32,000 nt of DNA from Mycolicibacterium smegmatis (GCF_001457595.1 NZ_LN831039.1:4920001-4952000); one strand, 5' to 3'; counted from the first letter of the stretch, positions 4,813 to 27,267 are shown. A program made the numbers and translations. Notes: generated by a model from the sequence alone, not told the origin.

Positions 4813-4842
4813 GCGTTACAGTTCATTCGGTTCACGTAACGC
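4813..4842. promoter_or_regulatory. Operator-like dyad GCGTTAC-N16-GTAACGC upstream of P450-1
   Basis: Perfect 7-nt inverted arms are separated by exactly 16 nt, in an AT-rich patch about 47 nt upstream of ATG 4889. The same architecture recurs at 14081-14108 and 27200-27228. Confidence 0.4.
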
Positions 4843-4888
4843 CTCGCACAGCACTTCGGGCACCGGCCCCGCCGCGGAGGAGGAGCAT

Positions 4889-6091
4889 ATGACCACGCCC
4901 CAGATGATCTTCGATCCGTTCTCCGAGGAGTACTTCGAGAACCCCTTCGACATCTACCGTCAGATGCGCGACGACGCCCCGCTGTACTACGACTCCGAGC
5001 AGGACTTCTACGCACTGTCCCGCCACGAGGACGTCGCGGCCGCGCTGAAGGACCACGAGGCGTTCTCGTCGTCACGGGGATGCGACCTGGCGATGGTGAA
5101 GGGCGACGAACCGCCGCAGAAGTCGATCATCTTCATGGATCCGCCCGAGCACCGGCACATGCGCAGCCTGCTCAACAAGGCGTTCACACCGCGCGCGGTG
5201 CAGGCGCAACGCGACACCGTCGTCGAACAGGTCGAGCACTATCTCGGGCAGATCGACTCCGACGAGTTCGACGTCGTGCAGGATTTCTCGGGCCCGTTCC
5301 CGGTCGAGGTGATCACCCGCATGGCCGGCGTCGAGCCGGAATACCGCCAGCAGGTGCGGCACTGGATCGACACGAGCCTTTCGCGCGAACCCGGCCAGGT
5401 CGCATACTCCGAGGCCGGGATGAAGGCCAACATCGACACCGCGATGTACTACTACTCGCTGGTGCAGAAGCGCCGCGAGAACCCGCAGGACGACATGATC
5501 AGCCGGTTGATCGCCGCCGAGATCCCCGGTGAGAACGGGGAGATGCGCCGTCTCGACGACGTCGAGATCACCGGCTTCGCAACCCTTCTGGGTGGCGCGG
5601 GCGCCGAGACCGTCACCAAGCTGATCGGCACGGCAATGGTGACGTTCGCGAAGTTCCCCGACCAGTGGCAGAAGCTGCTCGACGACCGCAGCAAGGTGCC
5701 CGCGGCGGTCGAGGAACTCCTGAGGTACGAGGGACCCGTGCAGTACAACGTGCGCTACACGCTCAAGGAGGCGCGCGTGCCCAGCGGCACCATCCCGGCA
5801 GGCAAGCCGGTGTTCCTGCTCAAGGCGTCAGCCAACCGCGACGAGCGGGCGTGGACCGATCCCGACGTCTTCGACATCGACCGCGACCGCACCGAGGCGC
5901 AGAACCTCGGCCTCGGTTACGGCATCCACAGCTGCCTCGGCGCCGCACTCGCGCGTCTGGAGAGCACGATCGCCCTGGAGCGGCTGCTCGACTTCATGCC
6001 GCGCTACGAGGTCAAATGGGACGGCCTGCAGCGCGTCCACATGCAGAACGTCGCAGGCTACTCCCATGTGCCGGTGAAGGTGTTGCGTTGA
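4889..6091 (+). CDS. Cytochrome P450 (P450-1), 400 aa
   Basis: Strong SD (GGAGGAGGAG) lies before the ATG. It has the I-helix GGAGAETV, ExxR (ELLRYE) and the heme loop LGYGIHSCLGAALA. Confidence 0.95.
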   Translation: MTTPQMIFDPFSEEYFENPFDIYRQMRDDAPLYYDSEQDFYALSRHEDVAAALKDHEAFSSSRGCDLAMVKGDEPPQKSIIFMDPPEHRHMRSLLNKAFTPRAVQAQRDTVVEQVEHYLGQIDSDEFDVVQDFSGPFPVEVITRMAGVEPEYRQQVRHWIDTSLSREPGQVAYSEAGMKANIDTAMYYYSLVQKRRENPQDDMISRLIAAEIPGENGEMRRLDDVEITGFATLLGGAGAETVTKLIGTAMVTFAKFPDQWQKLLDDRSKVPAAVEELLRYEGPVQYNVRYTLKEARVPSGTIPAGKPVFLLKASANRDERAWTDPDVFDIDRDRTEAQNLGLGYGIHSCLGAALARLESTIALERLLDFMPRYEVKWDGLQRVHMQNVAGYSHVPVKVLR

Positions 6092-6291
6092 TGACCAAGA
6101 AGATTCACGTCGACTTGGGGCTGTGTGAGAGCAACGGCGTCTGCATGGGCGTCATCCCCGAGGTGTTCGACCTCGACGAGGAGGACTACCTGCACGTGCT
6201 CTCCGACGAGGTGACCCCGGAAAACGAGGCCCGCGTGCGCGACGCCGTGCGGCAGTGCCCGCGCCAGGCCATCTCGATCGACGAAGAGTGA
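6091..6291 (+). CDS. Single-cluster (3Fe-4S type) ferredoxin, 66 aa
   Basis: MTKKIHVDLGLCESNGVC...QCPRQAI matches CxxNxxC(x)nCP. The ATG shares one nucleotide with the P450 stop (TGATG). Confidence 0.9.
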   Translation: MTKKIHVDLGLCESNGVCMGVIPEVFDLDEEDYLHVLSDEVTPENEARVRDAVRQCPRQAISIDEE

Positions 6292-6313
6292 TCCCGCGCT
6301 AACGCGCGATCAC
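6288..6313. terminator. Hairpin spanning the stops of two convergent genes; candidate bidirectional terminator
   Basis: gtgatcccgcg-ctaa-cgcgcgatcac forms an 11-bp stem with one mismatch. On the + strand it is followed by cgTTTTg. Only 7 nt separate the two convergent stop codons. Confidence 0.45.
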
Positions 6314-7210
6314 CGTTTTGCCGAAACCCTCGATGGTCTCGAGCGCGTGCGCCAGGCTGTCCCCCGGGATCGTGACGTGCAGCCAGGTCACGCCGAGCGC
6401 GGCGAGTTGGTCGACGCCCGCGAGGTAGGCGTCGGCGTCGAAATCGTCGTCACCGGGGTTGCCGCCGTCGAAGTTGGTGAACACGATGTCCACCGTCGAC
6501 GGGTCGCGTTGGGCGGCATCGAGTTTGGTCCGCAGATCAGCGATCCCGGCTGTGAGCCTCTCGATCGAGTCGATCGCGGCGGTACCCGCGGTCTGCGCAA
6601 GCCCGGGCGGTGCGGCGAACGGGCACCAGCCGTCGCCGTGCCTGGCGACGCGCGCCCTGGCGGCCGCGGTGTTGCCGCCGATCCAGATCGGTGGCGGGTT
6701 CACCGGGCGGGGGTGCGCGGTGACGCCCCTGGCACTGAAATGCTTTCCCTGGTAGGTGAAGTCATCGGTGGTCCAGATGCCGCGGATGACCTCGAGGGAT
6801 TCATCGAACAACTCGGTGCGTTCGTCGAACGTCACCCCGAGTGCGGCGAACTCGCGTTTGAGGTAACCCACCCCGACCGCGAGCGTGAACCGCCCGCCCG
6901 AGAGCAGGTCGAGTGTCGCACCGGATTTGGCCACCACGAACGGGTTGCGGTACGGCAGCACCACGATGTTGGGTACCAGCCGCAGGGTGGTGGTCTGCGC
7001 GGCGGCGTACGCCATCGCCACGAACGGGTCGACGGCGTCGTGCCCACCGGCATCGAGCCAACGTTGTGACGGCGCCGGGTGATCGGTGAAGCCGAACCCG
7101 TCGAAACCGGCGGCCTCGGCCGCTGCTGCCACCGCCGCCACGCCGGACCCGCTGACGAGGTCCGGGTGGTAGGGGTGGCTGTGCATCGGGTGTGTGATGC
7201 TGTAGCGCAC
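6299..7210 (-). CDS. LLM-class (luciferase-like) F420-dependent oxidoreductase family protein, 303 aa
   Basis: GTG start. TIM-barrel LLM signatures are present (..FGFTDHP.., LLSGGRFTLAVGVGY, PIWIGG). The family assignment is by eye. Confidence 0.8.
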   Translation of the reverse strand: MRYSITHPMHSHPYHPDLVSGSGVAAVAAAAEAAGFDGFGFTDHPAPSQRWLDAGGHDAVDPFVAMAYAAAQTTTLRLVPNIVVLPYRNPFVVAKSGATLDLLSGGRFTLAVGVGYLKREFAALGVTFDERTELFDESLEVIRGIWTTDDFTYQGKHFSARGVTAHPRPVNPPPIWIGGNTAAARARVARHGDGWCPFAAPPGLAQTAGTAAIDSIERLTAGIADLRTKLDAAQRDPSTVDIVFTNFDGGNPGDDDFDADAYLAGVDQLAALGVTWLHVTIPGDSLAHALETIEGFGKTVIAR

Positions 7211-7225
7211 GGCCGGGCCCCTGGC

Positions 7226-7516
7226 TCAGGACGAAAAGCCCGAGAGGATGACCCCGTTGCAGTCGGCGACACTCTGCCGGATCTTGGCGGCGGCCTGGTA
7301 GGCGTCGGAGAAGTACCACTCGCGGGCGGCCTCGACCGACGGGAACTCCAGCACCACGGTCTGGGTGCCGTGCCAGGTGCCCTCGACCACCTCGGCCTTC
7401 TGGTCGACGGCGAGGATCGTCGCGCCTCCCATGGTGGGACCCGCGGCCTTCGCGTACTCGGCCATGCCTGCCGGGTCCTTGATGTCCTCGGTGATGATCA
7501 CATAGCCCTTGGGCAC
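7226..7516 (-). CDS. DUF1330 family protein, 96 aa
   Basis: GTG start with AAGGAG about 10 nt upstream. MPKGYVIITEDIKDP...FPSVEAAREWYFSDAYQ is typical of DUF1330. Confidence 0.75.
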   Translation of the reverse strand: MPKGYVIITEDIKDPAGMAEYAKAAGPTMGGATILAVDQKAEVVEGTWHGTQTVVLEFPSVEAAREWYFSDAYQAAAKIRQSVADCNGVILSGFSS

Positions 7517-7558
7517 AGTTCGAGTCTCCTTGTCGGTGAAGCGGATTGAGGTGGTGGA

Positions 7559-7747
7559 TCAGAGTTTGTGGATCGCGCTCTCGGGACAGCAGTCGATGGC
7601 TTCCCGGACTGCGGCCTCGTGCTCGGCGGGGACCTCCCCGGCAGCGGCCACCGCCCAGCCATCGTCGGACAGTTCGAAGACCTCCGGGCACAGTGTCAGG
7701 CACATGCCGTGGCCTGCGCACCGGTCCTCGTCGACGGCGACCTTCAT
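7559..7747 (-). CDS. Single-cluster (3Fe-4S type) ferredoxin, 62 aa
   Basis: MKVAVDEDRCAGHGMC...DCCPESAI matches CxxHxxC(x)nCP. The ATG overlaps the P450-2 stop (ATGA). Confidence 0.9.
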   Translation of the reverse strand: MKVAVDEDRCAGHGMCLTLCPEVFELSDDGWAVAAAGEVPAEHEAAVREAIDCCPESAIHKL

Positions 7748-9021
7748 TTCACATCGAACTCCAGGTGCAGGTGGGTGAGCCCACGCAGGATGAACGTCGG
7801 GATGTACTTGTAGTCCCGATTGGCCGCCGGACCGTGGTGTTCCTCGGAGATCCGGATGTCGGTGGTGCGGTCGAGCAGTCGCTCCAGTCCGACGCGGGTC
7901 TCGGCACGGGCCAGCGGCGCGCCCGGGCAGCTGTGGATGCCACGGCCGAACGCCAGATGCTGGCGGGCGTTCTTGCGGGCCGGGTCGAAATCGTCGGGGT
8001 TCTCGAACCGGCGCGGGTCCCGGTTGGCCGCGCCGTTGACCACCATGACGGTACGGCCCGAGGGCAAGTCCTTGTCCCCCACCGTGACCGGGCAACGGGA
8101 GAGCCGGAAATCGCCCTTGACCGGACTCTCGTGGCGCAGCGCCTCTTCGATGAAGTTCGGCAACAGGCTGCGGTCCTCGCGCACCATCTTCTGCACGTCC
8201 GGCCGGTCTCCCAGTACCTTGAGCGCGGTGCCGAGCAGTCGGACCGTGGTCTCCTGACCCGCCGAGAAGACATTGGTGGCCACCCGTGCGACGTCGCCGG
8301 GGCTCGGGGTGGTGCCGTCTGGGAACAGTGCGGTGGCCATCCCCGTGAGGATGTCCTCGCGAGGGTTACTGCGCCGGTCCTCGATGTACGCCTCGAACTG
8401 GCCGTAGAGGAATTCCAGCGGGCTGTGCGACAGCGACTCGTCACCGGTGCTGCCCACGCCGCCGCCGGAGTTCTGCGAGATGCCGTCGACGAACGCGTTG
8501 CGGTCCTCGGCGGGGATGCCCAGCAGGTCCGCGATCACCAGCAGGGTGAACGGGCTGGCGAAGCCCTTGATGAACTCGCCCTTGCCCGGCGCCAGGAAAT
8601 CGTCGAGCACCTCGTCGGCCAGCTGCCACATCGCGTCCTCGTTCTCCTTGAGGCGCTTGGGCGTGATCAGCCGCATCATCAGCGAGCGGTGGTTGGTGTG
8701 CACCGGCGGGTCCAGGGTGGGCAGCTGATCGCTGAACGGCAGCTCGTCGCGGTGCTTCTCGATGAGTTCGGCGACGTCGTCGCGGCCCTCCAGCGGCACC
8801 GGGAAGCCGGGGAACGGCCCGGTGACCGAGGTGCATGAGGAGAAGCTCTTCTCGTCGTTGTAGACCGAGACAGCCTCCTCCCAGCCGGTCACCATGGTCA
8901 CCCCGTAGTGATCCTCGGACTGCACGGGGCACTTGTCCCGCAACGCGTTGAAATACGGGTACGGGTCGTCGACCAGCCGGGGGTCCTTGAACCAGTCGAT
9001 ACCGGCGGGATCGATCGCCAT
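7744..9021 (-). CDS. Cytochrome P450 (P450-2), 425 aa
   Basis: It starts at MAIDPAGIDWF. It has the I-helix SAGQETTV, ExxR (EALRHE) and the heme loop FGRGIHSCPGAPLA. The upstream 58 codons of the listed ORF lie in AT-rich promoter DNA. Confidence 0.92.
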   Translation of the reverse strand: MAIDPAGIDWFKDPRLVDDPYPYFNALRDKCPVQSEDHYGVTMVTGWEEAVSVYNDEKSFSSCTSVTGPFPGFPVPLEGRDDVAELIEKHRDELPFSDQLPTLDPPVHTNHRSLMMRLITPKRLKENEDAMWQLADEVLDDFLAPGKGEFIKGFASPFTLLVIADLLGIPAEDRNAFVDGISQNSGGGVGSTGDESLSHSPLEFLYGQFEAYIEDRRSNPREDILTGMATALFPDGTTPSPGDVARVATNVFSAGQETTVRLLGTALKVLGDRPDVQKMVREDRSLLPNFIEEALRHESPVKGDFRLSRCPVTVGDKDLPSGRTVMVVNGAANRDPRRFENPDDFDPARKNARQHLAFGRGIHSCPGAPLARAETRVGLERLLDRTTDIRISEEHHGPAANRDYKYIPTFILRGLTHLHLEFDVK

Positions 9022-9055
9022 ATGTGTCACTCCGTTTCCTGACGGACTCAGACGT

Positions 9056-9074
9056 ATGAGAACGTGCCTCTCAT
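9056..9074. promoter_or_regulatory. Operator-like dyad ATGAGAA-CGTGC-CTCTCAT (GAGAA-N5-TTCTC family, one arm mismatch)
   Basis: It lies 35 nt upstream of the P450-2 start, in the divergent gap shared with the EBP-like gene. It is related to the sites at 23722, 30522, 31322 and 31524. Confidence 0.45.
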
Positions 9075-9170
9075 TGTTGAGTATTACATTTCCACAGCGC
9101 CGCTTCGCCGTCAACGAGGGCAAACGCCTGATCGTTCCGCTCAACATGCCACATTCGGAAACGGGATTCT

Positions 9171-9198
9171 CCAATGTTGTGCATTCGCTCAACATTGG
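9171..9198. promoter_or_regulatory. Perfect 9-nt inverted repeat CCAATGTTG-N10-CAACATTGG
   Basis: It is seen directly in the sequence, about 57 nt upstream of ATG 9255. Related CTCAACA(T/A)TG copies occur at 9072-9081 (reverse orientation) and 9140-9149. The 10-mer CGCTCAACAT is repeated at 9138-9147 and 9186-9195. Confidence 0.4.
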
Positions 9199-9254
9199 CT
9201 GGTCGAACGCATATCGTCAGCTCAGTTGCCGCCGCGGCACGGACAGGACACGCC

Positions 9255-10034
9255 ATGACATCCGACATCGCGACACCGGCCCCGACCGCCGGCGAACCCG
9301 ACCTGGCCCGTCCCTGGGCACCGCACCGCCGCAAGGCCTACGTCGCCCTCACTGCGATGACCGGTTTCGCCTTCACGATCGCGGTCGTCGGGGTCGGCAC
9401 CGGTCTGCTGCCGCCCACCTTCACCGTCGACGTCATCGCCAACCTGGCGTTCGGCCTGCCGGTGATCGTGCTGCCGCTGGTCTACTTCTGGACCGGCCGG
9501 GGTGAGCAGCGCTCGCGTCTGCAACGCGCCTCGGAGCTGACGATGATCTACCTGCCCTACACCGCGGGCAGCCAACTCGGCTACGAGACCATCTTTCTGA
9601 TCGGCCATCCGATGAACTGGTGGACACCGACCACCGACCCGGGCTGGAAGTGGCTCTGGTGGCAGTACGGCCTGGCCGACACCCGCTACACCAGTGGCAA
9701 CGCCTGGATCTTCGGGCTGGAACTGGTCGGCGTGGTGACCGGCACGCTGCTGTTCATCGTGTGGATCCGCTTGATGCGCAGCGATTTACCGGTCGAGTCC
9801 CGGATCAAGAGCCTGTGGCTCGCCTTCACCGGATGCGCGATGCTGATCAGCAGCACCGCGGTGTACTTCCTGTCCGAGGTGCGCGCCGGGTTCGACGACA
9901 TCGGTCAGGGGGCCTTCGGGCTCTGGTTCAAATTCATCGCCGAGAACGTGCCGTTCATGATCCTGCCGTTCTTCGCCCTGATCGCGATGTATCGCCAGAT
10001 CGACCATCTCAGCCGCCGGGCAGGCCCTCGGTAG
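9255..10034 (+). CDS. Polytopic membrane protein resembling the EBP / EXPERA family (emopamil-binding protein, sterol delta8-delta7 isomerase-like), 259 aa
   Basis: It has several hydrophobic segments. LWWQYGLADTRY, GLELVG and YFLSEVRAGF...GLWFKF parallel human EBP LWKEYAKGDSRY, CMETIT and YFLTEHRDGF...LYFWFYF (human sequence recalled from memory). The start is uncertain (ATG 9255 preferred; 9174 possible). Confidence 0.7.
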   Translation: MTSDIATPAPTAGEPDLARPWAPHRRKAYVALTAMTGFAFTIAVVGVGTGLLPPTFTVDVIANLAFGLPVIVLPLVYFWTGRGEQRSRLQRASELTMIYLPYTAGSQLGYETIFLIGHPMNWWTPTTDPGWKWLWWQYGLADTRYTSGNAWIFGLELVGVVTGTLLFIVWIRLMRSDLPVESRIKSLWLAFTGCAMLISSTAVYFLSEVRAGFDDIGQGAFGLWFKFIAENVPFMILPFFALIAMYRQIDHLSRRAGPR

Positions 10035-10056
10035 CTCACACCGGGGTAGCTCACAC
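10030..10056 (+). repeat. Tandem direct repeat GGTAGCTCACAC x2 (15-nt period)
   Basis: Copies lie at 10030-10041 and 10045-10056. The first copy contains the TAG stop of the EBP-like gene. The repeat lies 65-90 nt upstream of the TetR-A start. Confidence 0.5.
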
Positions 10057-10120
10057 AGACCGACAGCGGCGGCTTGGTTGGACACTGGTCAGCTGTGCCG
10101 ATGCGCGGTACGGTGCGCAG

Positions 10121-10780
10121 GTGGTCGCATCACCGCGCAACACCGAAGCTGACCGGGGTCAGCGCCGGGCGACCTTCCAGCGCGCCAACTCCCACACCAC
10201 CAAGCAGATGCTGGTCCATGCGGCCATGGCGTTGTGGCGGACCAACGGCTACGCCAACACCACGGTGGCCGAGATCTGCCGGGGCGCCGGGGTCTCCAAG
10301 GCGTTGTTCTACTTCTACTTCCCGCGTAAGGAAGACGTGCTCTTCGAGGTGGGCGTGATGTCCACCCGCTCAGCCCAGCGCACCATCGCGAAGCTGCTGG
10401 CCGACGACTACGACGTCATGACCGTCGTCGGCGCCGCACTGACCGCCCTGGAACGCTCGATGAGCAGCAATCCGCGCGAGTTGGTCATCGAGACCATCCT
10501 GGAGGGGTACCGGCACGAGCACCGACTGCTGGCCACGGGAGAGAACCGTCCCGATCTGGACGGCGGCATGTTCACCACCCTGTTCGCCCGCGCGGTGGCC
10601 GACGGCAAACTTCCCGCCGGCACCGACACCGACCGCCTGGTCCATCTGGCCATGATGATGGTCAGCGAGGGCGCCCGGCATTGGGCCGCAGGCGCTTTCG
10701 GCGCCCGTTCCTTCGCCGACGTCGTCGCCTCCGACATCGCCACCCTGATCGCAGGCAGCACCGGACGAAGGAGACCGTGA
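10121..10780 (+). CDS. TetR/AcrR family transcriptional regulator (TetR-A), about 219 aa
   Basis: The HTH region is TKQMLVHAAMALWRTNGYANTTVAEICRGAGVSKALFYFYFPRKEDVL. GTG 10121 is the first start in frame that keeps helix 1, but the start is uncertain. The stop overlaps the next ATG (TGATG). Confidence 0.75.
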   Translation: MVASPRNTEADRGQRRATFQRANSHTTKQMLVHAAMALWRTNGYANTTVAEICRGAGVSKALFYFYFPRKEDVLFEVGVMSTRSAQRTIAKLLADDYDVMTVVGAALTALERSMSSNPRELVIETILEGYRHEHRLLATGENRPDLDGGMFTTLFARAVADGKLPAGTDTDRLVHLAMMMVSEGARHWAAGAFGARSFADVVASDIATLIAGSTGRRRP

Positions 10781-13103: not shown

Positions 13104-13104
13104 C

Positions 13105-14079
13105 GTGCGCGCAGCCGTCTGCCCCCGGTACGGGCCACCCGAGGTAGTCCGCGTCGAGGAGTTGCCTGCGCCTGAACTCGGGCCCGATCAGGTGCGGGTG
13201 CGTGTCGGTGCTGCCGCGGTGAACTTTCCCGACGTGTTGCTCGTGGCCGACAGGTACCAGGTGACCGTGCCCGTGCCGTTCGTCCCTGGCAGTGAATTCT
13301 CCGGGGTGGTGACCGAGATCGCCGACGGTGTCACGGATTTCGTAGTCGGCGACCGGGTGGTCGGTACCGCAATGCACGGCGCGTTCGCCGAGGAGGTGTG
13401 TGTCGACGCATCCTGTCTGCAGCGCGCCGTCGAGCGCCTCGGCGACCGTGGCGCCGCCGCGTCCGGCGTCGCGCACCGCACCGCGTTCCACGCGCTGCGG
13501 TCGGTCGCCCGGGTCTCCACGGGCGACGACGTTGTCGTGCTTGGCGCGGGCGGCGGCGTCGGCCTGGCCGCGGTGCAGCTCGCCGCGGCACTCGGCGCCC
13601 GGGTGACCGCGGTGGCGTCGTCAACCGAAAAACTCGATGCCGCAGCACGATACGGTGCACACCACCTCGTCGACCACACAGCCGGTTCACTCCGCGCGGC
13701 ACTGCGCGACGCCGTTCCCGGAGGGGCCGACGCGGTGCTCGACCCGGTCGGCGGCGATCTCTCCGAACCCGCGTTGCGCGCGTTGCGCCGCGGCGGGCGG
13801 TTCGTCACCATCGGCTTCGCGTCAGGCGCCATCCCCCGGATACCACTGAACCTCGTGCTGGTGAAGGGCGTGCAGATCCTGGGCTTCGCGTTCCAGGACG
13901 TGCCGCCGGAGGAATTCGCGCGCAACGAATCCGAGCTCGGCGAACTGCTGGCGTCCGGCGCCGTGACGCCGCACATCGGTGCGGTCTATCCCCTCGCCGA
14001 GGTCGCTGCCGCGCTGCGGCATGTCGCCGAGGGACGCGCCGTGGGCAAGGTGGTCCTGGACGTCTCTGGCGTCCGATGA
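13105..14079 (+). CDS. MDR-superfamily NADPH:quinone oxidoreductase / enoyl reductase-like protein, 324 aa
   Basis: GTG start 1 nt after the upstream stop. It has VNFPDVL, PGSEFSGVV and the nucleotide motif VLGAGGGVGLAAVQLA. Confidence 0.87.
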   Translation: MRAAVCPRYGPPEVVRVEELPAPELGPDQVRVRVGAAAVNFPDVLLVADRYQVTVPVPFVPGSEFSGVVTEIADGVTDFVVGDRVVGTAMHGAFAEEVCVDASCLQRAVERLGDRGAAASGVAHRTAFHALRSVARVSTGDDVVVLGAGGGVGLAAVQLAAALGARVTAVASSTEKLDAAARYGAHHLVDHTAGSLRAALRDAVPGGADAVLDPVGGDLSEPALRALRRGGRFVTIGFASGAIPRIPLNLVLVKGVQILGFAFQDVPPEEFARNESELGELLASGAVTPHIGAVYPLAEVAAALRHVAEGRAVGKVVLDVSGVR

Positions 14080-14080
14080 G

Positions 14081-14108
14081 GTTTACAGTCGTCGCAGTGA
14101 GCGTAAAC
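14081..14108. promoter_or_regulatory. Operator-like dyad GTTTAC-N16-GTAAAC upstream of P450-3
   Basis: Six-nt inverted arms are separated by exactly 16 nt, and the spacer begins AGT as at 4813-4842. It lies directly after the stop of the MDR gene and about 100 nt upstream of ATG 14206. Confidence 0.4.
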
Positions 14109-14205
14109 TCACGCATCCTTGATCTGCGTCACCAGACCTGCTAAGCAAGTGCTCAGAACAAGACGGTCAGTTCAGAAAATGCCGCCCTTCGACGACGGAG
14201 TCCCG

Positions 14206-15396
14206 ATGGCCAAGCCCAGCACCAGTGCCACACCAGACCTGTACTACGACCCGTACAGCGTGCAGCTCAACATGGAACCGCACGAGGTGTTCGCGCGGAT
14301 CCGCGAAGAGGCGCCGCTGTACTACAACGAGCAGCACGACTTCTACGCGCTGAGCCGGTACCACGACGTCAACAAGGCCGTGATCGACCACGAGACGTTC
14401 ATCTCGGGCCGCGGCGCGCTGCTCGAGCTCATCAAGAGCGGCATGGAGATTCCGCCCGGCACCCTGATTTTCGAGGATCCGCCGATCCACAACATCCACC
14501 GCAACCTGCTGTCGCGGATGTTCACGCCGCGCAAGGTGCTCGCGCTCGAGCCCCAGATCCGCGAATTCACCACCCGCTGCCTGGACGCGGTGGCCGGCTC
14601 GGACACGTTCGACTTCGTCAACGATCTCGGCGAGCAGATGCCCATGCGCGTCATCGGCATGCTGCTGGGCATCCCCGAGGACCGCCAGCGCGCCATCACC
14701 GACCACGGCGAGCAGACGCTGCAGGGCACGACAGTCGATTCCCTGGCCACCGGTGAGGTGTTCGCGGAATTCATCGACTGGCGCGCCGAGAACCCGTCGG
14801 ACGACATCATGACCGACCTGCTCAACGCCGAGTTCGAGGACGAGACCGGCACGGTGCGCAAGCTGCGCCGAGACGAGTTGCTGCTGTACCTGACCGTGAT
14901 CGCCACCGCGGGTTCGGAAACCACGACGCGCGCGCTGGGCTGGGCGGGCAAGACGCTGGCCGACCACCCCGATCAGCGCCGCGACCTCGTCGAGAACCCG
15001 GCGCTGATCCCGCAGGCCATCGAGGAACTGCTGCGCTGGGAACCGCCTGCCCTGCAGATCGCCCGCTACGTCACGCGCGACGTCGAGTACTACGGCAAGA
15101 CCGTGCCCGCGGGGTCGGCGATGCTCATGCTGGTCGGGGCGGCCAACCGCGACCACAGGCGTTTCCCGCCGAACGGCGACGTGTTCGATATCCACCGGGA
15201 GCAGTTCTCGCACATGACTTTTGGTGCGGGCACGCACTTCTGCATGGGCAACGCGCTGGCCCGGCTCGAACTGCGTGTCGCACTCGAGGAAATACTCAAG
15301 CGCTTCCCCGAGTGGGAGGTCGACTGGGACAACGCCAGGCCCTCGGAGACCGCCGCGGTACGCGGCTGGGCGGCCATGCCAACGTTCGTGCGCTGA
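14206..15396 (+). CDS. Cytochrome P450 (P450-3, paralogue of P450-1), 396 aa
   Basis: GGAG lies 5 nt before ATG 14206; alternative starts are 14179 and 14119. It has the I-helix ATAGSETT, ExxR (ELLRWE) and the heme loop FGAGTHFCMGNALA. The N-terminus APLYYNEQHDFYALSRYHDV parallels P450-1 APLYYDSEQDFYALSRHEDV. Confidence 0.92.
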   Translation: MAKPSTSATPDLYYDPYSVQLNMEPHEVFARIREEAPLYYNEQHDFYALSRYHDVNKAVIDHETFISGRGALLELIKSGMEIPPGTLIFEDPPIHNIHRNLLSRMFTPRKVLALEPQIREFTTRCLDAVAGSDTFDFVNDLGEQMPMRVIGMLLGIPEDRQRAITDHGEQTLQGTTVDSLATGEVFAEFIDWRAENPSDDIMTDLLNAEFEDETGTVRKLRRDELLLYLTVIATAGSETTTRALGWAGKTLADHPDQRRDLVENPALIPQAIEELLRWEPPALQIARYVTRDVEYYGKTVPAGSAMLMLVGAANRDHRRFPPNGDVFDIHREQFSHMTFGAGTHFCMGNALARLELRVALEEILKRFPEWEVDWDNARPSETAAVRGWAAMPTFVR

Positions 15397-15409
15397 CCGC
15401 CCTGTCGCG

Positions 15410-15913
15410 TCAGCTGGCGGTGATCAGGTCGGCGGGCACCGAGCGGCTGAGCATGGTGCCGGTGCGGAACGCCTCGGTGCTGCCGACGGAGCCGGCGTCG
15501 GGGTGATTGGCCGCGGTGAGCGCCTGGGCCTTGAACGCGCGTGCGGCAGCGGACAGTTCGTGATGGGCGGGACAGACGCGCAGGTCTGACGGACACTCGT
15601 CGCCCCACAGCGTGACCTCGGTGAGGCCCTGCTCCAGCGCGCCGAGCACACCGTGGCGCACACGCTTGTCGGTGTTGAACAGATCGGCCGCGACCGCGAC
15701 GGTCTGCGGGTGCGGACGGTCCTGCCACGACCTGAGCACGCTCTCGAGGTCCATGGCCTCGACACCGAGGATCTCCAAGGGGCGCACGTTCTCGTCGCGG
15801 TCGATCAGCACCGTGACGTCCCAGCCGGCCATCACCCGGTCGACGAGCCAGCCTCCCGCGTACCGCACCGCGTCGATCACGCACGGGGCGACCACATCGA
15901 GTCGATACCTCAT
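15410..15913 (-). CDS. Hypothetical protein, 167 aa, translationally coupled to TetR-B
   Basis: The ATG overlaps the TetR-B stop (ATGA). Codon usage is consistent with its neighbours. I recognise no domain (MRYRLDVVAPCVIDAVRYAGGWLVDR...). Confidence 0.6.
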   Translation of the reverse strand: MRYRLDVVAPCVIDAVRYAGGWLVDRVMAGWDVTVLIDRDENVRPLEILGVEAMDLESVLRSWQDRPHPQTVAVAADLFNTDKRVRHGVLGALEQGLTEVTLWGDECPSDLRVCPAHHELSAAARAFKAQALTAANHPDAGSVGSTEAFRTGTMLSRSVPADLITAS

Positions 15914-16527
15914 GTCAGCTCGATCTCGCGGGCCAACATCTCGGCGTATCCCTTGAATACGTCCTGCAGCGGCAGTGAGGGATCGAGTAACCATGAGGTC
16001 TCCATTCCGTTGACGAAGGCGAGAATTTCCACGGCCTTGATGACCGGGTCGAAGTCCGGGCGATAGCGGCCACTGTGCTGGCCGCGGCGAATGATGTCCG
16101 CGACGATGTCGCGCGCATCCTGCTGACGTTTCAGCAAACGATCGTGCAGTGGTGCATCCGGCTGGATGTTCTCCACCAGCAGCACCGTGAACGTACCGAC
16201 CAACTCGGGTGCCCGGACGAACCGTTCGGCCACCCGCTTGATCTCGTCGGCAAGGTCACCGGACCGGTCGGCGTGTGCATCGTCGTCGAGATCCCTGGCG
16301 TCGAGCACCGCGTTGAGGAGGTGCTCCTTGGATTCGAAATGATGCAGCAGACCGGCCGTGGTGACCCCGGCCTCCTTGGCGATCTGAGCGAGTGAGGTGT
16401 TGCGCCACCCGTTGCGGGCCAGCAGCCTCTCGGCGACCGAAAGGATGCGCTGCCTGCGGTCTTCGCCCTTGGCGAGCAGGGTCTCGTAGGGTCTGGCAGC
16501 CTCGGCCTGCCCCTGGGGTGGCGTCAC
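15910..16527 (-). CDS. TetR/AcrR family transcriptional regulator (TetR-B), 205 aa
   Basis: GTG start with GAAGGAG 5 nt upstream. The HTH region is RRQRILSVAERLLARNGWRNTSLAQIAKEAGVTTAGLLHHFESKEHLL. Confidence 0.85.
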   Translation of the reverse strand: MTPPQGQAEAARPYETLLAKGEDRRQRILSVAERLLARNGWRNTSLAQIAKEAGVTTAGLLHHFESKEHLLNAVLDARDLDDDAHADRSGDLADEIKRVAERFVRAPELVGTFTVLLVENIQPDAPLHDRLLKRQQDARDIVADIIRRGQHSGRYRPDFDPVIKAVEILAFVNGMETSWLLDPSLPLQDVFKGYAEMLAREIELT

Positions 16528-16541
16528 TGAACTCCTTCGTC

Positions 16542-16577
16542 CAAACCAACCTAGTGAACACACAGTAGGTTGGTTTG
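16542..16577. promoter_or_regulatory. Perfect 12-nt inverted repeat CAAACCAACCTA-N12-TAGGTTGGTTTG; candidate TetR-B operator and/or terminator of the upstream ACAD operon
   Basis: It is seen directly in the sequence and abuts the TetR-B ribosome-binding site. It lies about 67 nt downstream of the ACAD stop on the minus strand. A second 7-nt dyad, TGTGACA-N30-TGTCACA, is at 16583-16626. Confidence 0.5.
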
Positions 16578-16643
16578 CACGGTGTGACAAGGGTCTCAAC
16601 GGGAATAAATTCGGGCCTGTGTCACATAACGCACACCCGCAGG

Positions 16644-17792: not shown

Positions 17793-17804
17793 CAGCCGGC
17801 CCTC

Positions 17805-20969: not shown

Positions 20970-20985
20970 CGAAGCGAAGATCTCC

Positions 20986-22194: not shown

Positions 22195-22217
22195 GTGCTC
22201 CTGGTTCTCTTGTCGAT

Positions 22218-23513
22218 TCAGTCCCGTGCGCCCGAGACCGCTTTGGCGTTGGTCTGGAAGTCGGCGAAGCTGGCGCCGGTCTTGTCCTTCTTGCTGAGCG
22301 CCCGGATCGAGACGTCGTGGCCCTCGGCGGCTTTGCGCAGCGCACCGACGTTGGCCTGCTCCTTGGGCACGTGGGCGAACGGGTCGAAGTGGTAGAGCCG
22401 CATGGCGTTCTCGTGGGTGATCTTGTTGATCTCGTCGTCGGGCACGTCGTAGGTGTCGAACACCGCCGACAGTTCCTCGGGCGCGCCCGGCCACATGGAA
22501 TCGCTGTGCGGGTAGTCCATTTCCCAGCAGATGTTGTCGATGCCGATCATGTGGCGGTTCTTCACCCCGACCGGGTCGGAGATGAAGCACGTCATGAAGT
22601 GCTCGCGGAACACCTCGCTGGGCAGCTTGCCGCCGAAGTTCTGGTGGGTCCACGTCGAGTGCATCTCGAAGGTGCGGTCCACGCGGTCCAGGAAGTACGG
22701 GATCCACCCGGTGCCGCCCTCGGACAGTGCGATCTTCAGCGTCGGGAACTCCTTGATGGGCGCCGACCACAGCAGGTCGGCCGCGGCCTGCACGATGTTC
22801 ATGGGCTGCAGCGTGATCATGACGTCCATCGGCGCGTCGGGTGCGGTGATCGCCAGCTTGCCCGACGACCCGATGTGCACGTTCATCACGGTCTCGGTGT
22901 CCACGAGCGCCTGCCACAACGGGCGCCAGTACTCCAGGTCGTGGAACGACGGATAACCCAGCGTCGAGGGATTCTCGGTGAAAGTCAGTGAGTGCACACC
23001 TTTTTCGGCCACCCGGCGCACCTCGGCGGCGGCCAATCCAGGATTCCAGATCGCCGGGATCGCCATCGGGATGAACCGGCCCGGATTCGAGGCGCACCAC
23101 TCGTCGATGTGCCAGTCGTTGTACGCCTGGACCAGGGCCAGCGAGAACTCCTCGTCGTCGGTGGCGAACAGGCGCGCGGCGAAACCGGGGAACGACGGGA
23201 AGTTCATGGTCGCCAGCACGCCACCGGCGTTCATGTCCTTGACCCGCTCGTTCGGGTCGTAGCAGCCCTTGCGGATCTCGTCGAGGCCCTGCGGTTCGAG
23301 GCCGTACTCCTCCTTCGGCCGGCCCGCGACGGCGTTGAGCGCGACGTTGGGGATCACGGTGTCGCGGAACTGCCAGGTATCCGAGCCGTCGGGGTTGTGT
23401 ACCAACCGCGGTGCCTCGTCGCGGTACTTGGCGGGCAGATGATTCTTGAACATGTCCGGTGGCTCGATGATGTGGTCGTCCACGCTGATGAGGATCATGT
23501 CGTCTTTGTTCAT
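22218..23513 (-). CDS. Amidohydrolase_2 (ACMSD/PF04909-like) metal-dependent hydrolase family protein, 431 aa
   Basis: GGAG lies 7 nt before ATG 23513. It has MNKDDMILISVDDHIIEPPDMF, VQAYNDWHIDEW, and the MNVHIGSS, EGGTGW and MDYPHSD motifs. Confidence 0.87.
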   Translation of the reverse strand: MNKDDMILISVDDHIIEPPDMFKNHLPAKYRDEAPRLVHNPDGSDTWQFRDTVIPNVALNAVAGRPKEEYGLEPQGLDEIRKGCYDPNERVKDMNAGGVLATMNFPSFPGFAARLFATDDEEFSLALVQAYNDWHIDEWCASNPGRFIPMAIPAIWNPGLAAAEVRRVAEKGVHSLTFTENPSTLGYPSFHDLEYWRPLWQALVDTETVMNVHIGSSGKLAITAPDAPMDVMITLQPMNIVQAAADLLWSAPIKEFPTLKIALSEGGTGWIPYFLDRVDRTFEMHSTWTHQNFGGKLPSEVFREHFMTCFISDPVGVKNRHMIGIDNICWEMDYPHSDSMWPGAPEELSAVFDTYDVPDDEINKITHENAMRLYHFDPFAHVPKEQANVGALRKAAEGHDVSIRALSKKDKTGASFADFQTNAKAVSGARD

Positions 23514-23700
23514 GACTGCTCTCCGTTCCGGCGAAGGGTTGCGGACTTCGACCATGCGGCACGGCGCACCGCACACGCTTCTCTCTGTCAGGAAACTATC
23601 TTCTCCATAGACGAGAATCAATGTCTGATGTCGCTGACGAGCATCTTCAGCCTGGTCACGCGCACACGCGAGCAGTTGCCATTGACCATCGGCCGAAAAG

Positions 23701-23740
23701 ATGGAAACCTGTTAGTCGTAAATGAGAACCTGATTCTCAT
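23701..23740. promoter_or_regulatory. Tandem operator-like sites: degenerate ATGGAAACCTGTTAGTCGT followed by the dyad ATGAGAA-CCTGA-TTCTCAT
   Basis: The 7-nt perfect arms are at 23722-23740. The adjacent 19-mer at 23701-23719 is 13/19 identical to it. An everted TTCTC-N7-GAGAA lies at 23601-23617. All are in the 281-nt divergent gap between the amidohydrolase operon and the CMD/Rieske operon. Confidence 0.5.
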
Positions 23741-23794
23741 GGACGAGAGTTGAAGCTGACAGCAGCAGCGTGAGCGCCGAGAGGAGAGCCGTCC

Positions 23795-24325
23795 GTGCGC
23801 CTGACCCCATTGCCCGCCGACGAGTGGGACGACGAGGTACGACTGGCGCTGTCGGTGATGCTGCCCGAGGAGCGACTGAACCCCGAGGGCGCGGGCACCG
23901 CGTTGTCCACGCTGGCCCGCCATCCGCGGCTCACCAAGGCGTTCCTGCGGTTCAGCAACCACCTGCTGTTCCGCTCCACCCTCGACCCACGCCTGCGCGA
24001 GCTCGCGATCCTGCGTATCGCGCGCAGGCGCAACTGCGAGTACGAGTGGGCCCACCACGCGTTCATCGGCAAGGCCGAGGGCCTCACCGACGACGACATC
24101 GACGGCATCGGCCGTGGCGTGGTGTCCGACCCCTTCGACCAGGTCGTGATCGACGCCGTCGACGAACTCGACGAACTGTCCACGATCTCGGACCCCACGT
24201 GGGCCGCGCTCGGCGAGAAACTCGACGACCGCCAGCGCATGGACCTGGTCTTCACCGTCGGCGGCTACGGCCTCATGGCCATGGCCTACAACACCTTTGG
24301 CATCGAACCGGAATCCGGCCACTGA
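23795..24325 (+). CDS. Carboxymuconolactone decarboxylase (AhpD-like) family protein, 176 aa
   Basis: GTG start with GAGAGGAGAG upstream. It has the core RRNCEYEWAHH. Confidence 0.78.
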   Translation: MRLTPLPADEWDDEVRLALSVMLPEERLNPEGAGTALSTLARHPRLTKAFLRFSNHLLFRSTLDPRLRELAILRIARRRNCEYEWAHHAFIGKAEGLTDDDIDGIGRGVVSDPFDQVVIDAVDELDELSTISDPTWAALGEKLDDRQRMDLVFTVGGYGLMAMAYNTFGIEPESGH

Positions 24326-24360
24326 GCCCTGAACGGCTCGACAGAGAAAGTAGGTAGAAA

Positions 24361-25704
24361 GTGGCGCATTTCCCGAAACCAGCTGTCGGCAGCTGGACCG
24401 AGAACTGGCCCGAACTGGGCACCGCCCCTGTGGATTACACCGACTCCATCGACCCGGAGCAGTGGAAACTGGAGCAGCAGGCCATCTTCCGCAGGACCTG
24501 GCTGCATGTGGGTCGTGTGGAGCGCCTGCCCAAGACCGGGAGCTACTTCACCCGCGAGATGCCATCGGTGGGCAAGGGCACGTCGATCATCGTCGTCAAG
24601 GACAAAGACGGTGCCGTGCGGGCGTTCTACAACATGTGCCGGCACCGCGGCAACAAGCTCGTGTGGAACGACTACCCCGGCGAAGAGGTCTCCGGTACGT
24701 GCAGGCAGTTCACGTGCAAGTACCACGCGTGGCGCTACGCGCTCAACGGTGACCTGACGTTCATCCAGCAGGAGGACGAGTTCTTCGACGTCGACAAGGC
24801 CGACTACCCGCTCAAGCCCGTGCGGTGCGAGATCTGGGAAGGGTTCATCTTCGTCAACTTCGACGACGACGCCATGCCGCTCGAGGAGTACCTCGGCGAG
24901 TTCGGGCAGGGCCTCAAAGGTTATCCGTTCCACGAGATGACCGAGGTGTACAGCTACCGCGCCGAGATCAACTCGAACTGGAAGCTCTTCATCGACGCGT
25001 TCGTCGAGTTCTACCACGCCCCGATCCTGCACATGAAGCAGGCGACGCCCGAAGAGGCCGCCAAGCTGGCCAAGATCGGCTTCGAGGCGCTGCACTACGA
25101 CATCAAGGGCGACCACTCGATGATCTCGTCCTGGGGCGGCATGAGCCCGCCGAAGGACCTCAACATGGTCAAGCCGATCGAGCGCATCCTGCACAGCGGT
25201 CTGTTCGGCCCGTGGGACCGTCCCGACATCAAGGGCATCCTGCCCGACGAGTTGCCGCCCGCGGTCAACCCGGCCCGTCAGCCCACGTGGGGCCAGGACA
25301 GCTTCGAGTTCTTCCCCAACTTCACTCTGCTGCTGTGGGTTCCGGGCTGGTATCTGACCTACAACTACTGGCCGACCGACGTCGACAAGCACATCTTCGA
25401 GTGCAACCTGTACTTCGTCCCGCCGAAGAACACCCGTCAGCGGCTCGCGCAGGAACTCGCGGCCGTGACGTTCAAGGAGTACGCGCTGCAGGACGCAAAC
25501 ACGCTGGAGGCCACGCAGACGCAGATCAACACGCGCGCGGTGACCGAGTTCCCGCTGTGCGACCAGGAGGTGCTGCTGCGCCACCTGCACCACACGGCGC
25601 ACAAGTACGTCGATGCCTACAAGGCCGAACTGGCGGAGAAAACCCAGAAGGCCGAGTCCAACGGGTCGGCCGTCACGAGCGAGAAGGACGCCGCGCATGT
25701 CTGA
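24361..25704 (+). CDS. Rieske [2Fe-2S] non-heme-iron oxygenase, alpha (catalytic) subunit, 447 aa
   Basis: The Rieske ligands are CRH...CKYHAW. The mononuclear-iron region is NWKLFIDAFVEFYHAPILH. Confidence 0.9.
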   Translation: MAHFPKPAVGSWTENWPELGTAPVDYTDSIDPEQWKLEQQAIFRRTWLHVGRVERLPKTGSYFTREMPSVGKGTSIIVVKDKDGAVRAFYNMCRHRGNKLVWNDYPGEEVSGTCRQFTCKYHAWRYALNGDLTFIQQEDEFFDVDKADYPLKPVRCEIWEGFIFVNFDDDAMPLEEYLGEFGQGLKGYPFHEMTEVYSYRAEINSNWKLFIDAFVEFYHAPILHMKQATPEEAAKLAKIGFEALHYDIKGDHSMISSWGGMSPPKDLNMVKPIERILHSGLFGPWDRPDIKGILPDELPPAVNPARQPTWGQDSFEFFPNFTLLLWVPGWYLTYNYWPTDVDKHIFECNLYFVPPKNTRQRLAQELAAVTFKEYALQDANTLEATQTQINTRAVTEFPLCDQEVLLRHLHHTAHKYVDAYKAELAEKTQKAESNGSAVTSEKDAAHV

Positions 25705-26044
25705 CACCACCACAGAACGCCTGCTGCCCGAGGAGTTCGCCTACCTCGAGCGGTTCTCCGACTGGATCCTGCCGACCGAACCCGAGCGCTACGCCAAGCG
25801 GCTGTCGTCGTCGATGGAGGAGATGCAGGAGCTCTACGACGTCGGGATGGCCCGCCTCGAGGAGGTCATGACCTACCTCGACGCGCGATTCCCGTTGCAC
25901 GGCATGCCCGATGACGCCAAGCGCCTCATGCACCTCATGCAGTCGGTGGTGATGGTGAGCTTCCCGGTCGAGGTGTGGAAGCAGCCGCGTGTCCTCGACA
26001 GCGGGGCCGCGTGGGTCGAGATCGTCAGGGAGCCGGTGGTGTAA
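25697..26044 (+). CDS. Hypothetical 115-aa protein, translationally coupled to the Rieske oxygenase
   Basis: The ATG lies 8 nt inside the oxygenase gene (ATGTCTGA). Codon usage is native-looking. I recognise no domain (MSDTTTERLLPEEFAYLERFSDWILPTEPERY...). Confidence 0.6.
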   Translation: MSDTTTERLLPEEFAYLERFSDWILPTEPERYAKRLSSSMEEMQELYDVGMARLEEVMTYLDARFPLHGMPDDAKRLMHLMQSVVMVSFPVEVWKQPRVLDSGAAWVEIVREPVV

Positions 26045-26046
26045 GG

Positions 26047-27267
26047 GTGCTGACCCTCAAAGCTGCGGGTCTCGTCGACGTCGACACCGGGGAACTCATC
26101 CGCCCCGGTGTCGTGCGCGTCGAGGGCGACCGCATAGTCGGCATCGGCGGCCCGGCCGAAGGCGAGGTCATCGACCTCGGGGATGCCATCCTGCTGCCCG
26201 GCCTGATGGACATGGAGGTCAACCTCCTCATGGGCGGGCGCGGTGAGAATCCCGGGCTGTCGCAGGTACAGGACGATCCCCCCACCCGTGTGCTGCGCGC
26301 CGTGGGCAACGCGCGCCGCACGCTGCGGGCCGGTTTCACCACCGTGCGCAACCTCGGCCTGTTCGTCAAGACCGGCGGTTACCTGCTGGATGTCGCGCTG
26401 GGCAAGGCGATCGACGCGGGGTGGATCGACGGACCGCGCGTGATCCCGGCAGGCCACGCGATCACCCCGACCGGTGGACACCTGGATCCCACGATGTTCG
26501 CCGCGTTCATGCCCGGCGTGCTGGAACTGACCGTCGAGGAGGGCATCGCCAACGGCGTCGACGAGATCCGCAAGGCCGTGCGCTACCAGATCAAGCACGG
26601 CGCACAGCTGATCAAGGTGTGCTGTTCGGGCGGTGTGATGTCACTGACCGGAGAGGCCGGGGCACAACACTATTCGGACGAAGAGCTGCGTGTCATCGTC
26701 GACGAGGCACACCGGCGCGGGTTGCGGGTCGCCGCACACACGCACGGCGCCGAGGCCGTCAAACACGCGATCGACTGCGGCATCGACTGCATCGAACACG
26801 GCTTCCTCATGGACGACGAGGCCATCGAGATGATGGTGGCGCACGACCGGTTCCTGGTGTCGACGCGTCGGCTCGCCGAGTACATGGACGTCTCCAAGGC
26901 GCCACCGGAGCTTCAGGCCAAGGCCGCCGAGATGTTCCCCAAGGCGCGCACGTCGATCAAGGCCGCGTACGAGGCCGGCGTCAAGATCGCTATCGGCACC
27001 GACGCCCCGGCCATCCCCCACGGCCGCAACGCCGACGAACTGGTCACGCTGGTGCAGTGGGGCCTGCCGCCTGCGGCCGTGCTGAAAGCGGCCACCGTGA
27101 CCGCGGCCGAGTTGATCAACGTGACCGACCGCGGCCGCCTCGCCGAAGGCCTGCTGGCCGACATCATCGCGGTGCCGGGCAACCCGCTGGAAGACATCAG
27201 CGTTACACAAAACGTAGACTTTGTAATGAAAGGCGGTAAGGTCTTCCGCAATGACAAAGCCAACTGA
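26047..27267 (+). CDS. Amidohydrolase-superfamily protein (imidazolonepropionase/prolidase-related TIM barrel) with a non-canonical first metal motif, 406 aa
   Basis: GTG start 2 nt after the upstream stop. It has LLPGLMDMEVNL (ExN where HxH is expected), LIKVCCSGG, AAHTHG, IEHG and IGTDAP. Confidence 0.87.
   Translation: MLTLKAAGLVDVDTGELIRPGVVRVEGDRIVGIGGPAEGEVIDLGDAILLPGLMDMEVNLLMGGRGENPGLSQVQDDPPTRVLRAVGNARRTLRAGFTTVRNLGLFVKTGGYLLDVALGKAIDAGWIDGPRVIPAGHAITPTGGHLDPTMFAAFMPGVLELTVEEGIANGVDEIRKAVRYQIKHGAQLIKVCCSGGVMSLTGEAGAQHYSDEELRVIVDEAHRRGLRVAAHTHGAEAVKHAIDCGIDCIEHGFLMDDEAIEMMVAHDRFLVSTRRLAEYMDVSKAPPELQAKAAEMFPKARTSIKAAYEAGVKIAIGTDAPAIPHGRNADELVTLVQWGLPPAAVLKAATVTAAELINVTDRGRLAEGLLADIIAVPGNPLEDISVTQNVDFVMKGGKVFRNDKAN
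27200..27228. promoter_or_regulatory. Operator-like dyad GCGTTAC-N16-GTAATG embedded in the 3' end of the amidohydrolase gene
   Basis: The left arm is the same 7-mer and the spacing the same 16 nt as at 4813-4842. One position of the right arm differs (GTAAT vs GTAAC). It lies 22 nt upstream of ATG 27251, in a locally AT-rich coding tail. Confidence 0.35.

Follow-up and report, generated by a model that had tools for sequence, protein, structure and literature searches.

TTAC-N16-GTAA sites in a P450/acyl-CoA dehydrogenase island

We analyzed a 32,000-nucleotide stretch of the Mycolicibacterium smegmatis genome (GCF_001457595.1, NZ_LN831039.1:4920001-4952000), referred to here as the window. 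The genome is a single contig of 6.98 Mb with 67% G+C, and the genes of the window were annotated by a Pfam survey. The window holds an island of P450 and acyl-CoA dehydrogenase genes in which an inverted repeat, TTAC-N16-GTAA, occurs three times: upstream of each of two P450 genes (P450-1 and P450-3) and upstream of a SnoaL/acyl-CoA dehydrogenase gene pair. On comparative evidence this repeat is a functional, conserved operator predicted to be bound by protein, and neither an RNA element nor a chance repeat. Its most likely reader, a view that we hold with moderate confidence, would be a pair of TetR proteins encoded 2.5 Mb away. The sites and the genes that follow them are listed here by window position.

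4813 to 4842, no strand assigned: site 1, GCGTTAC-N16-GTAACGC, a perfect 7-bp inverted repeat with the invariant arms TTAC (4816 to 4819) and GTAA (4836 to 4839)
4889 to 6091, plus strand: P450-1 (Pfam p450), the gene 3' of site 1
14081 to 14108, no strand assigned: site 2, GTTTAC-N16-GTAAAC, in the gap between a Zn-dehydrogenase gene and P450-3
14206 to 15396, plus strand: P450-3 (Pfam p450), likely start ATG 14206, with GGAG 8 nucleotides (nt) upstream
27200 to 27228, no strand assigned: site 3, GCGTTAC-N16-GTAATG, inside the 3' end of an amidohydrolase open reading frame
27251 to 27694, plus strand: SnoaL_4 (Pfam), 3' of site 3
27695 to 28816, plus strand: acyl-CoA dehydrogenase (Pfam), 3' of site 3

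The three sites had been noticed in a first-pass annotation of this DNA, and their sequences and coordinates proved exact on rereading, as did the remark that the spacers of sites 1 and 2 both begin with AGT. Site 1 occupies a 140-nt gap between a gene for an NAD-binding dehydrogenase (3957 to 4748) and P450-1, and it ends 46 nt 5' of the start codon at 4889. Site 2 begins 2 nt past the stop codon of the Zn-dehydrogenase gene (13105 to 14079), and 98 nt separate it from the likely P450-3 start. Site 3 ends 22 nt before the ATG at 27251, as had been said; what the annotation lacked is that this site is not intergenic and falls within the final 23 codons of the amidohydrolase gene (25975 to 27267), which overlaps the SnoaL start. 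The description of the two P450 genes as clear paralogues was too strong. Their products share 38% identity in an alignment that starts at residue 9 and are paralogues in the broad sense only, and the nearest solved structures match P450-1 in no more than the general P450 fold.

TTAC-N16-GTAA occurs 10 times in the genome, including the three copies in the window. This genome-wide count, which the first-pass annotation had proposed as a check, compares with a mean of 3.7 copies per genome at 39 other spacings (0 to 40, with N6 left out), and a dinucleotide shuffle of the window gave an expectation of 0.01 copies. The clustering in the window had a Poisson P value of 1.5e-5, calculated post hoc. 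As a control, all 4-mer inverted repeats at spacings of 0 to 30 were counted in all 32-kb bins of the genome, and at least 51 of 436 bins (at least 12%) held some combination of repeat and spacing clustered at P ≤ 7.6e-6. Because the motif was picked after looking and comparable clustering is common, clustering alone proves nothing; it was rejected as proof, and the case rests on conservation. A genome scan that allowed one mismatch was uninformative (210 matches at N16 versus 145 to 211 at other spacings). 

Conservation of the three sites

Loci orthologous to site 1 were found with a 601-nt query around the site in same-genus genomes, and the dehydrogenase-P450 junction was required. Every one of the 19 syntenic loci has an exact TTAC-N16-GTAA 5' of its P450-1 orthologue, 34 to 49 nt from the P450 start, which is the outcome of the promoter alignment that had been suggested. 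Across the 40 aligned columns, the only invariant ones are the 8 arm bases; the spacers differ widely. The dyad is kept in all 19 orthologues and without covariation, as expected of a TetR-type operator. Invariant sequence and spacing around a free spacer form the pattern expected of a symmetric protein that recognizes DNA sequence. Of the shared arm GTTAC named in the first-pass annotation, the core of TTAC plus a purine holds, whereas the flanking G and C bases are not conserved among the site 1 orthologues.

The arms could instead form an RNA hairpin that signals transcript processing, stability, or attenuation. Site 1 can be drawn as a 7-bp stem (−7.9 kcal/mol), yet its loop would be 16 nt long, and fold z-scores were −0.95 to −1.19. 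Arm covariation among the site 1 orthologues did not exceed that of shuffled controls: none of the four core pairs ever varies, and the outer G/C pairs, which lengthen the stem in this genome, erode in the orthologues with no compensating change. A search against Rfam gave no match in the window. We regard a hairpin as extremely improbable.

A second alternative is that the pattern is the promoter itself, with TTtACA as the −35 box and (G)TAAnnT as the −10 box 16 nt apart, so that its symmetry would reflect RNA polymerase. Site 2 fits this description, since it reads as a sigma-70-like promoter with TTTACA (14082 to 14087), 16 nt, and TAAACT (14104 to 14109), for 9 of 12 matches. So do two sets of sites outside the window that stand just before start codons: a copy on the reverse strand at genome position 2706946, which reads TTTACA-16-TAAACT directly 5' of a start codon, and the thiolase sites of Mycolicibacter, some of which read TTTACA-16-TAAGGT 6 nt before the ATG. 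On the other hand, a simple sigma-70 scan called no promoter at site 1 or site 3, and of the three sites in the window only site 2 has TANNNT 16 to 18 nt after a −35 box. The final T of the would-be −10 box at site 1 (TAACGC, TAACGG, or TAAAGG) is present in 1 of 19 orthologues, and it is missing at site 3 (TAATGA) and at site 2 of the closest relative, G018 (TAATCC). Both arms of site 1 are, moreover, equally invariant. In mycobacteria the −35 box is usually not as invariant, and the final T is the most conserved position of the −10 box. We consider a promoter explanation of the whole pattern distinctly unlikely. An extracytoplasmic function sigma factor reading of the right arm (SigD-type GTAACG as a −35 box) was also rejected: inspection by eye found no conserved −10 partner 16 to 17 nt downstream, and the element is symmetric.

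The predicted promoter of P450-1 lies beside the repeat.

4782 to 4816, plus strand: predicted P450-1 promoter, with a −35-like TTTTCG (4782 to 4787), a 17-nt spacer, and a −10-like TACTGT (4805 to 4810) or TAGCGT (4811 to 4816)

Its elements, cTTTyCG-N17-TACyGT and TAGCGT, are conserved among P450-1 orthologues. A conserved TANNNT abuts the left arm both at P450-1 (TAGCGT|TAC) and at the thiolase gene (TACGAT|TTAC). With this arrangement the palindrome would span about +1 to +25, a usual place for a repressor. The simple sigma-70 scan did not call the predicted P450-1 promoter.

Sites 2 and 3 are less well conserved than site 1, and it is conceivable that site 1 alone is functional, with the other two arising by chance or as by-products of a promoter (site 2) and of Val-Thr and Val-Met coding (site 3). 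Comparable clustering is, as noted above, common when every motif is tried. Site 2 is absent from the orthologous gap of G024. The full form of site 3 is present in 4 of 21 genomes (beyond this genome, only G018, G024, and G009), its right-arm A is kept in just 3 of 20 orthologues and thus lost in 17, and its spacing is set by the reading frame. Once the motif is fixed by the site 1 orthologues, however, finding two further copies in the same 32 kb has a Poisson P value of about 1.4e-4, with the other spacings as background. An exact N16 site recurs in the same, otherwise unalignable, gap of G018, and a similar site (TTACAGTCG...) precedes the counterpart of P450-3 in G020.

At site 3 the left arm is kept in 15 of 21 genomes, and 14 of 20 orthologues retain its wobble T, compared with a retention of about 14% at other A/T wobble positions. 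The site forces a run of rare A/T-ending codons on the amidohydrolase gene. The codons GTT ACA CAA AAC GTA GAC TTT GTA ATG AAA have G or C at 3 of 10 third positions, a value this low being found in 0.27% of all 10-codon windows genome-wide. They include the two rarest Val codons (GTT, 4.2% of Val, and GTA, 2.5% and used twice) as well as ACA (6.4% of Thr), CAA (12.7% of Gln), and TTT (4.6% of Phe). The 11 codons over site 3 hold 7 of the 16 A/T-ending codons present among the last 113 of the amidohydrolase gene. Taken with the recurrence of site 2, these observations leave a very low probability for site 1 as the sole functional site.

Two details of site 3 stand apart from this comparison. 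Window position 27204 is the wobble T of the rare Val codon GTT, which makes the left arm CGTTAC, and it is kept even where the right-arm GTAA is lost. Many of the genomes without GTAA at the right arm read GTCA there.

A distant TetR pair with a related motif

Seven N16 copies lie outside the window, and three of them are intergenic and adjoin TetR genes. The copy at 2375407 lies between enoyl-CoA hydratase and thiolase genes, beside a convergent TetR gene, that at 2394809 separates a P450-TetR operon from a divergent aldehyde dehydrogenase gene, and that at 2706946 occupies a divergent gap adjoining a kinase-TetR operon. The first two fall in the ~30-kb cluster (2.37 to 2.40 Mb) of two paralogous TetRs with TetR_N and TetR_C_1 domains. 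The members of this pair (2376682 to 2377437 and 2392751 to 2393491) are 55% identical and are the only proteins of their kind in the genome. Coordinates of strain mc2155 were mapped through published primer and gene sequences, with an offset of about +8.32 kb near the window; 9 of 10 published M. smegmatis mc2155 primers for rapid amplification of cDNA ends match exactly at shifted positions, and the genome is not collinear with that of mc2155. The TetR gene at 2376682 to 2377437 corresponds to MSMEG_2225 by primer mapping. A literature search for the motif string, MSMEG_2225, and its neighbors found no relevant publication.

The TetR cluster is rich in a compact form of the same half-site. 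Exact TTACnGTAA occurs 6 times in the genome, and 3 of these copies are in the cluster, one 5' of each TetR transcription unit and one in another intergenic gap. Units within one mismatch number 161 in the genome and 9 in a 34-kb TetR stretch. We then surveyed 661 kb of other genomes, made up of 80 loci around homologues of the pair. Among spacings of 10 to 22 nt between TTAC and GTAA, N16 was found 16 times and N13 14 times, and every other spacing was found 0 or 1 time. The N16 matches lie directly 5' of the thiolase gene beside the TetR gene, and the N13 matches, TTACTGTAA-N3-TTACAGTAA, lie 5' of the P450-TetR operon. The same loci held TTACnGTAA 54 times and a 12-bp TTAC-to-TTAC distance 63 times. 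From this distribution, the predicted canonical operator of the pair is a 9-bp TTACnGTAA core, usually in two copies 12 bp apart. The motif and its TetR family thus occur together at three levels, namely the enrichment of N16 and N13, the sites within the cluster, and P450-1 paralogues that adjoin TetR paralogues. The sites exist, their arms and spacing are under selection, and the motif is found in association with one TetR family and its cluster.

An intergenic gap of the TetR cluster (2399724 to 2399756) holds three TTAC units with a 12-bp period (TTACGGAAGAAGTTACAGTAGCGATTACC), and the GTAGCG linker there resembles the GTTAGCG linker of site 1.

Site 1 carries a trace of the canonical arrangement.

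4804 to 4824, plus strand: tandem units TTACTGTTA (4804 to 4812) and TTACAGTTC (4816 to 4824), 12 bp apart

The site reads TTACTGTTA-gcg-TTACAGTTC...GTAA, and its left part is a degenerate form of the double operator TTACnGTAA-N3-TTACnGTAA. The genome has 10 copies of TACnGT-N6-TACnGT, versus 0 to 2 when the period is set to any value from 9 to 16 other than 12; the TetR cluster (2.374 to 2.401 Mb) accounts for six of the 10 and site 1 for one (TACTGT-N6-TACAGT, 4805). Sites 2 and 3 lack this 12-bp tandem. The window has no exact TTACnGTAA core and a single unit with one mismatch, at 4804. Among the P450-1 locus orthologues the N16 arms are kept in 19 of 19 and the tandem signature in 11 of 19, so the split palindrome is the primary feature at P450-1.

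Further links come from the distribution of the genes. In three other genomes, paralogues of P450-1 (58 to 64% identity) adjoin paralogues of the TetR pair, with TTACnGTAA or tandem TTACnGTTA on the promoters. The TetR family was found in 16 of 16 genomes (at least 78% complete) that keep site 1 and in 0 of 4 that lack the P450-1 locus. This co-occurrence is supportive only, as shared ancestry confounds it and related genomes are not independent.

One of the TetR paralogues beside a P450-1 paralogue (L173:3399-4072, on contig 19 of G017) aligns as two pieces in different frames and is probably frameshifted or the product of an assembly error. A paralogue of P450-3 lies 60 kb downstream (L051:1738, genome position about 4992850) and is preceded by TTAC-N18-GTAA (TTACGCGCATAACCACCGCTGTGTAA), which is conserved in G018 (L052:1416). 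Other P450-3 paralogues carry GGTAACTTACGCGGGTAAG, and TTAC/GTAA half-sites at other spacings are common before this P450 family.

Several observations weigh against the distant pair as reader, in addition to the promoter-like sequence of site 2 and the erosion of the right arm of site 3 described above. The N16 geometry differs from the canonical operator of the pair: half-sites stand 5 bp apart in the canonical sites of the cluster, whereas the window sites retain only the outer two, at a distance of 20 bp. Conservation of the inner half-sites is poor, and each inner half of an N16 site matches TTACnGTAA at 1 to 2 of 4 bases only. Exact N16 is present in only 12 to 16 of the 80 TetR-flanking loci, from a few related lineages. 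The intergenic copy at 2706946, rejected as a member of the regulon, more likely belongs to a separate family of promoter-like elements. Finally, a TetR encoded in the window, TetR-B, has its orthologue at a distance of 1 to 6 kb from that of P450-1 in almost every genome with site 1. As for the separate family, TTTACA-N15-GTGTCACGC elements occur at 2710555, 2713817, and 2725265, clustered in a 20-kb region, and the exact N16 copy at 2706946 more likely belongs with them than with the window sites.

The noncanonical geometry and the weak inner half-sites make a different protein with a similar half-site a serious rival: the N16 sites would be a real operator read by another regulator, distinct from both the distant TetR pair and the TetRs of the window, whose TTAC-type half-sites lie two helical turns apart. 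Half-site centers 20 bp apart exceed one TetR dimer, and TTAC/GTAA at N4, N6, and N18 marks other promoters in the genus, which indicates that the half-site is used by more than one system. Against another regulator stand the enrichment of N16 beside homologues of the TetR pair (16 occurrences versus 0 to 1 at other spacings), the presence of two N16 sites in the cluster of the pair, before thiolase and aldehyde dehydrogenase genes, and the 12-bp tandem signature at site 1. We judge this explanation unlikely, though by no means negligible.

For control by the distant TetR pair, we infer from these sequences the binding protein, its stoichiometry, the positions of the transcription starts, and repression itself, as follows. 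The repressor genes are 2.5 Mb from the window, and any control would be in trans. Of the canonical operator, the N16 sites retain the outer pair of half-sites alone (TTAC plus a purine), with centers 20 bp apart, or about two helical turns. A single TetR dimer cannot span half-site centers 20 bp apart in TetR-DNA complexes, which suggests two dimers, or a dimer of dimers or tetramer, each anchored on one strong outer half-site. Bound on or just 3' of the −10 element, the repressors would block transcription of P450-1 and P450-3, and at site 3, inside the preceding gene, they would block an internal start for the SnoaL/acyl-CoA dehydrogenase pair until released by a ligand. More tentatively, and with considerable doubt, we propose that one TetR family uses one 4-bp half-site in two geometries, the compact TTACnGTAA at its own genes and the split TTAC-N16-GTAA with its free spacer at remote targets, one of them set in the coding end of a gene and prevailing over codon preference there, with a distinct binding mode (half-anchored dimers or a bridging tetramer) that couples the P450/acyl-CoA dehydrogenase island to the pathway of the repressors.

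TetR operators of the QacR-IR1 type are reportedly long palindromes bound by a pair of dimers. The N16 sites resemble them in being palindromes of 24 to 30 bp, too long for one dimer, and most conserved at their distal ends. In QacR-IR1 the inner bases are specific and conserved, whereas the N16 spacer is free, and no sequence relationship is claimed. The best matches to the candidate TetR in the Protein Data Bank were TetR class A (E value, 2e-15) and SimR (E value, 1.6e-9); similarity to SimR and to the classical TetR(A/B/D) proteins is low and does not establish likeness of their operators.

The N16 sites are most likely previously undescribed sites of a TetR-type regulon with a mildly unusual split geometry, and would act as an ordinary gene switch. 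If so, three transcription units (the two P450 genes and the SnoaL/acyl-CoA dehydrogenase pair) answer to a repressor pair in another 30-kb catabolic cluster, and two orphan pathways are joined in one regulon. A ligand that releases the TetR pair should then induce both clusters, which would provide a handle on the substrate. The split half-sites and the in-gene site with its forced rare codons would be minor curiosities of TetR-DNA recognition that leave its general principles unchanged.

Regulators and other motifs of the window

The window encodes three TetR proteins of its own, listed here with related features.

6091 to 6291: ferredoxin open reading frame, after P450-1
10121 to 10780: TetR-A, start GTG 10121, heading an operon that ends just before site 2
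15910 to 16527: TetR-B, with its own predicted operator upstream
16535 to 16577, minus strand: candidate TetR-B operator, AACCAACCTA-N11-TAGGTTGGTT, not part of the N16 element
30595 to 31323: TetR-C, the third TetR, behind a GAGAAT-N3-ATTCTC site

The first-pass annotation had named TetR-A or TetR-B, or a protein encoded outside the window, as a possible second regulator. The gene order gives TetR-A and TetR-B some appeal, TetR-A by heading the operon that ends just 5' of site 2 and TetR-B by its closeness to P450-1. The distribution of TetR-A speaks against it. Of 24 same-genus genomes, 7 have an orthologue of it, compared with 18 that keep site 1; 11 of these 18 lack TetR-A, among them seven genomes that are 99 to 100% complete. 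Being rarer than site 1, TetR-A cannot be its general reader. TetR-B has a different conserved palindrome of 33 bp, AACCAACCTACTGTGTGTTCACTAGGTTGGTT, preceded by GACCCTTGTCACA, which is near-identical 5' of TetR-B in 18 genomes and whose sole copy in the window is at the TetR-B promoter; it is probably a private autoregulatory operator. G013 (93% complete) keeps site 1, and TetR-B was not detected there. No TTAC-type site was found upstream of TetR-A, TetR-B, or TetR-C, and the helix-turn-helix sequences of TetR-A and TetR-B show no relationship with those of the TetR pair linked to TTAC. TetR-C, like TetR-B, has a different operator of its own and is likewise disfavored. We therefore consider it very unlikely that TetR-A or TetR-B binds the sites, and of the options first raised, a regulator encoded outside the window, most likely the distant TetR pair, fits best. 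A TetR-B half-site, AACCAACCT, in the spacer of site 1 was considered and set aside as a coincidence, being present in G011 and G022 but in none of the other 17 genomes. FdmR was also considered as a regulator and dropped; papers citing it gave no motif.

A direct repeat of GGTAGCTCACAC, present twice at window positions 10040 to 10064, lies 57 nt 5' of the TetR-A start and is a candidate TetR-A site.

The island also holds palindromes of the form (AT)GAGAAY-N3-RTTCTC(AT), at 23724, 30524, 31322, and 31527, with a half-site at 9058. One of them lies just 5' of the third TetR gene (30595 to 31323), in a KstR-like system separate from the N16 sites. These palindromes are presumably the first operator of the island. 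That a second regulator acts beside GAGAAY-N3-RTTCTC, as had been suggested, is supported by the conservation of the N16 sites in orthologues and their enrichment near one TetR family; the suggested identity of that regulator as TetR-A or TetR-B is not. The island resembles the KstR/KstR2 cholesterol systems in its apparent TetR-type control of mycobacterial lipid or terpenoid degradation genes (P450s, acyl-CoA dehydrogenases, and thiolases). The KstR/KstR2 consensus motifs, TnnAACnnGTTnnA and AnCAAGnnCTTGnT, differ from the N16 sites, and neither is present in the sequences of sites 1 to 3. As read from its motifs, the island is wired by at least three predicted repressor systems: that of the GAGAAY palindrome, that of TTAC-N16-GTAA, and that of TetR-B with its private palindrome.

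In other genomes, many P450-3-like paralogues likewise have the GAGAAY motif 5' of them. A plus-strand transcription start site at mc2155 position 4918877 is listed in the supplement of Martini et al. 2019 (tabulated value, 20, presumably a fold change; assigned to MSMEG_4820, antisense to MSMEG_4821). It maps approximately to window positions 7197 to 7209, between luciferase-like and DUF1330 genes.

Another spacing of the same half-sites stands out in the genome. TTAC-N6-GTAA has 20 copies (for example, 813222 with 813247, 394478, and 2233063), versus about 4 at other spacings, and looks like a separate regulon motif. Among these are two copies in tandem at a distance of 25 nt and two that share the sequence TTACTCCAGAGTAA.

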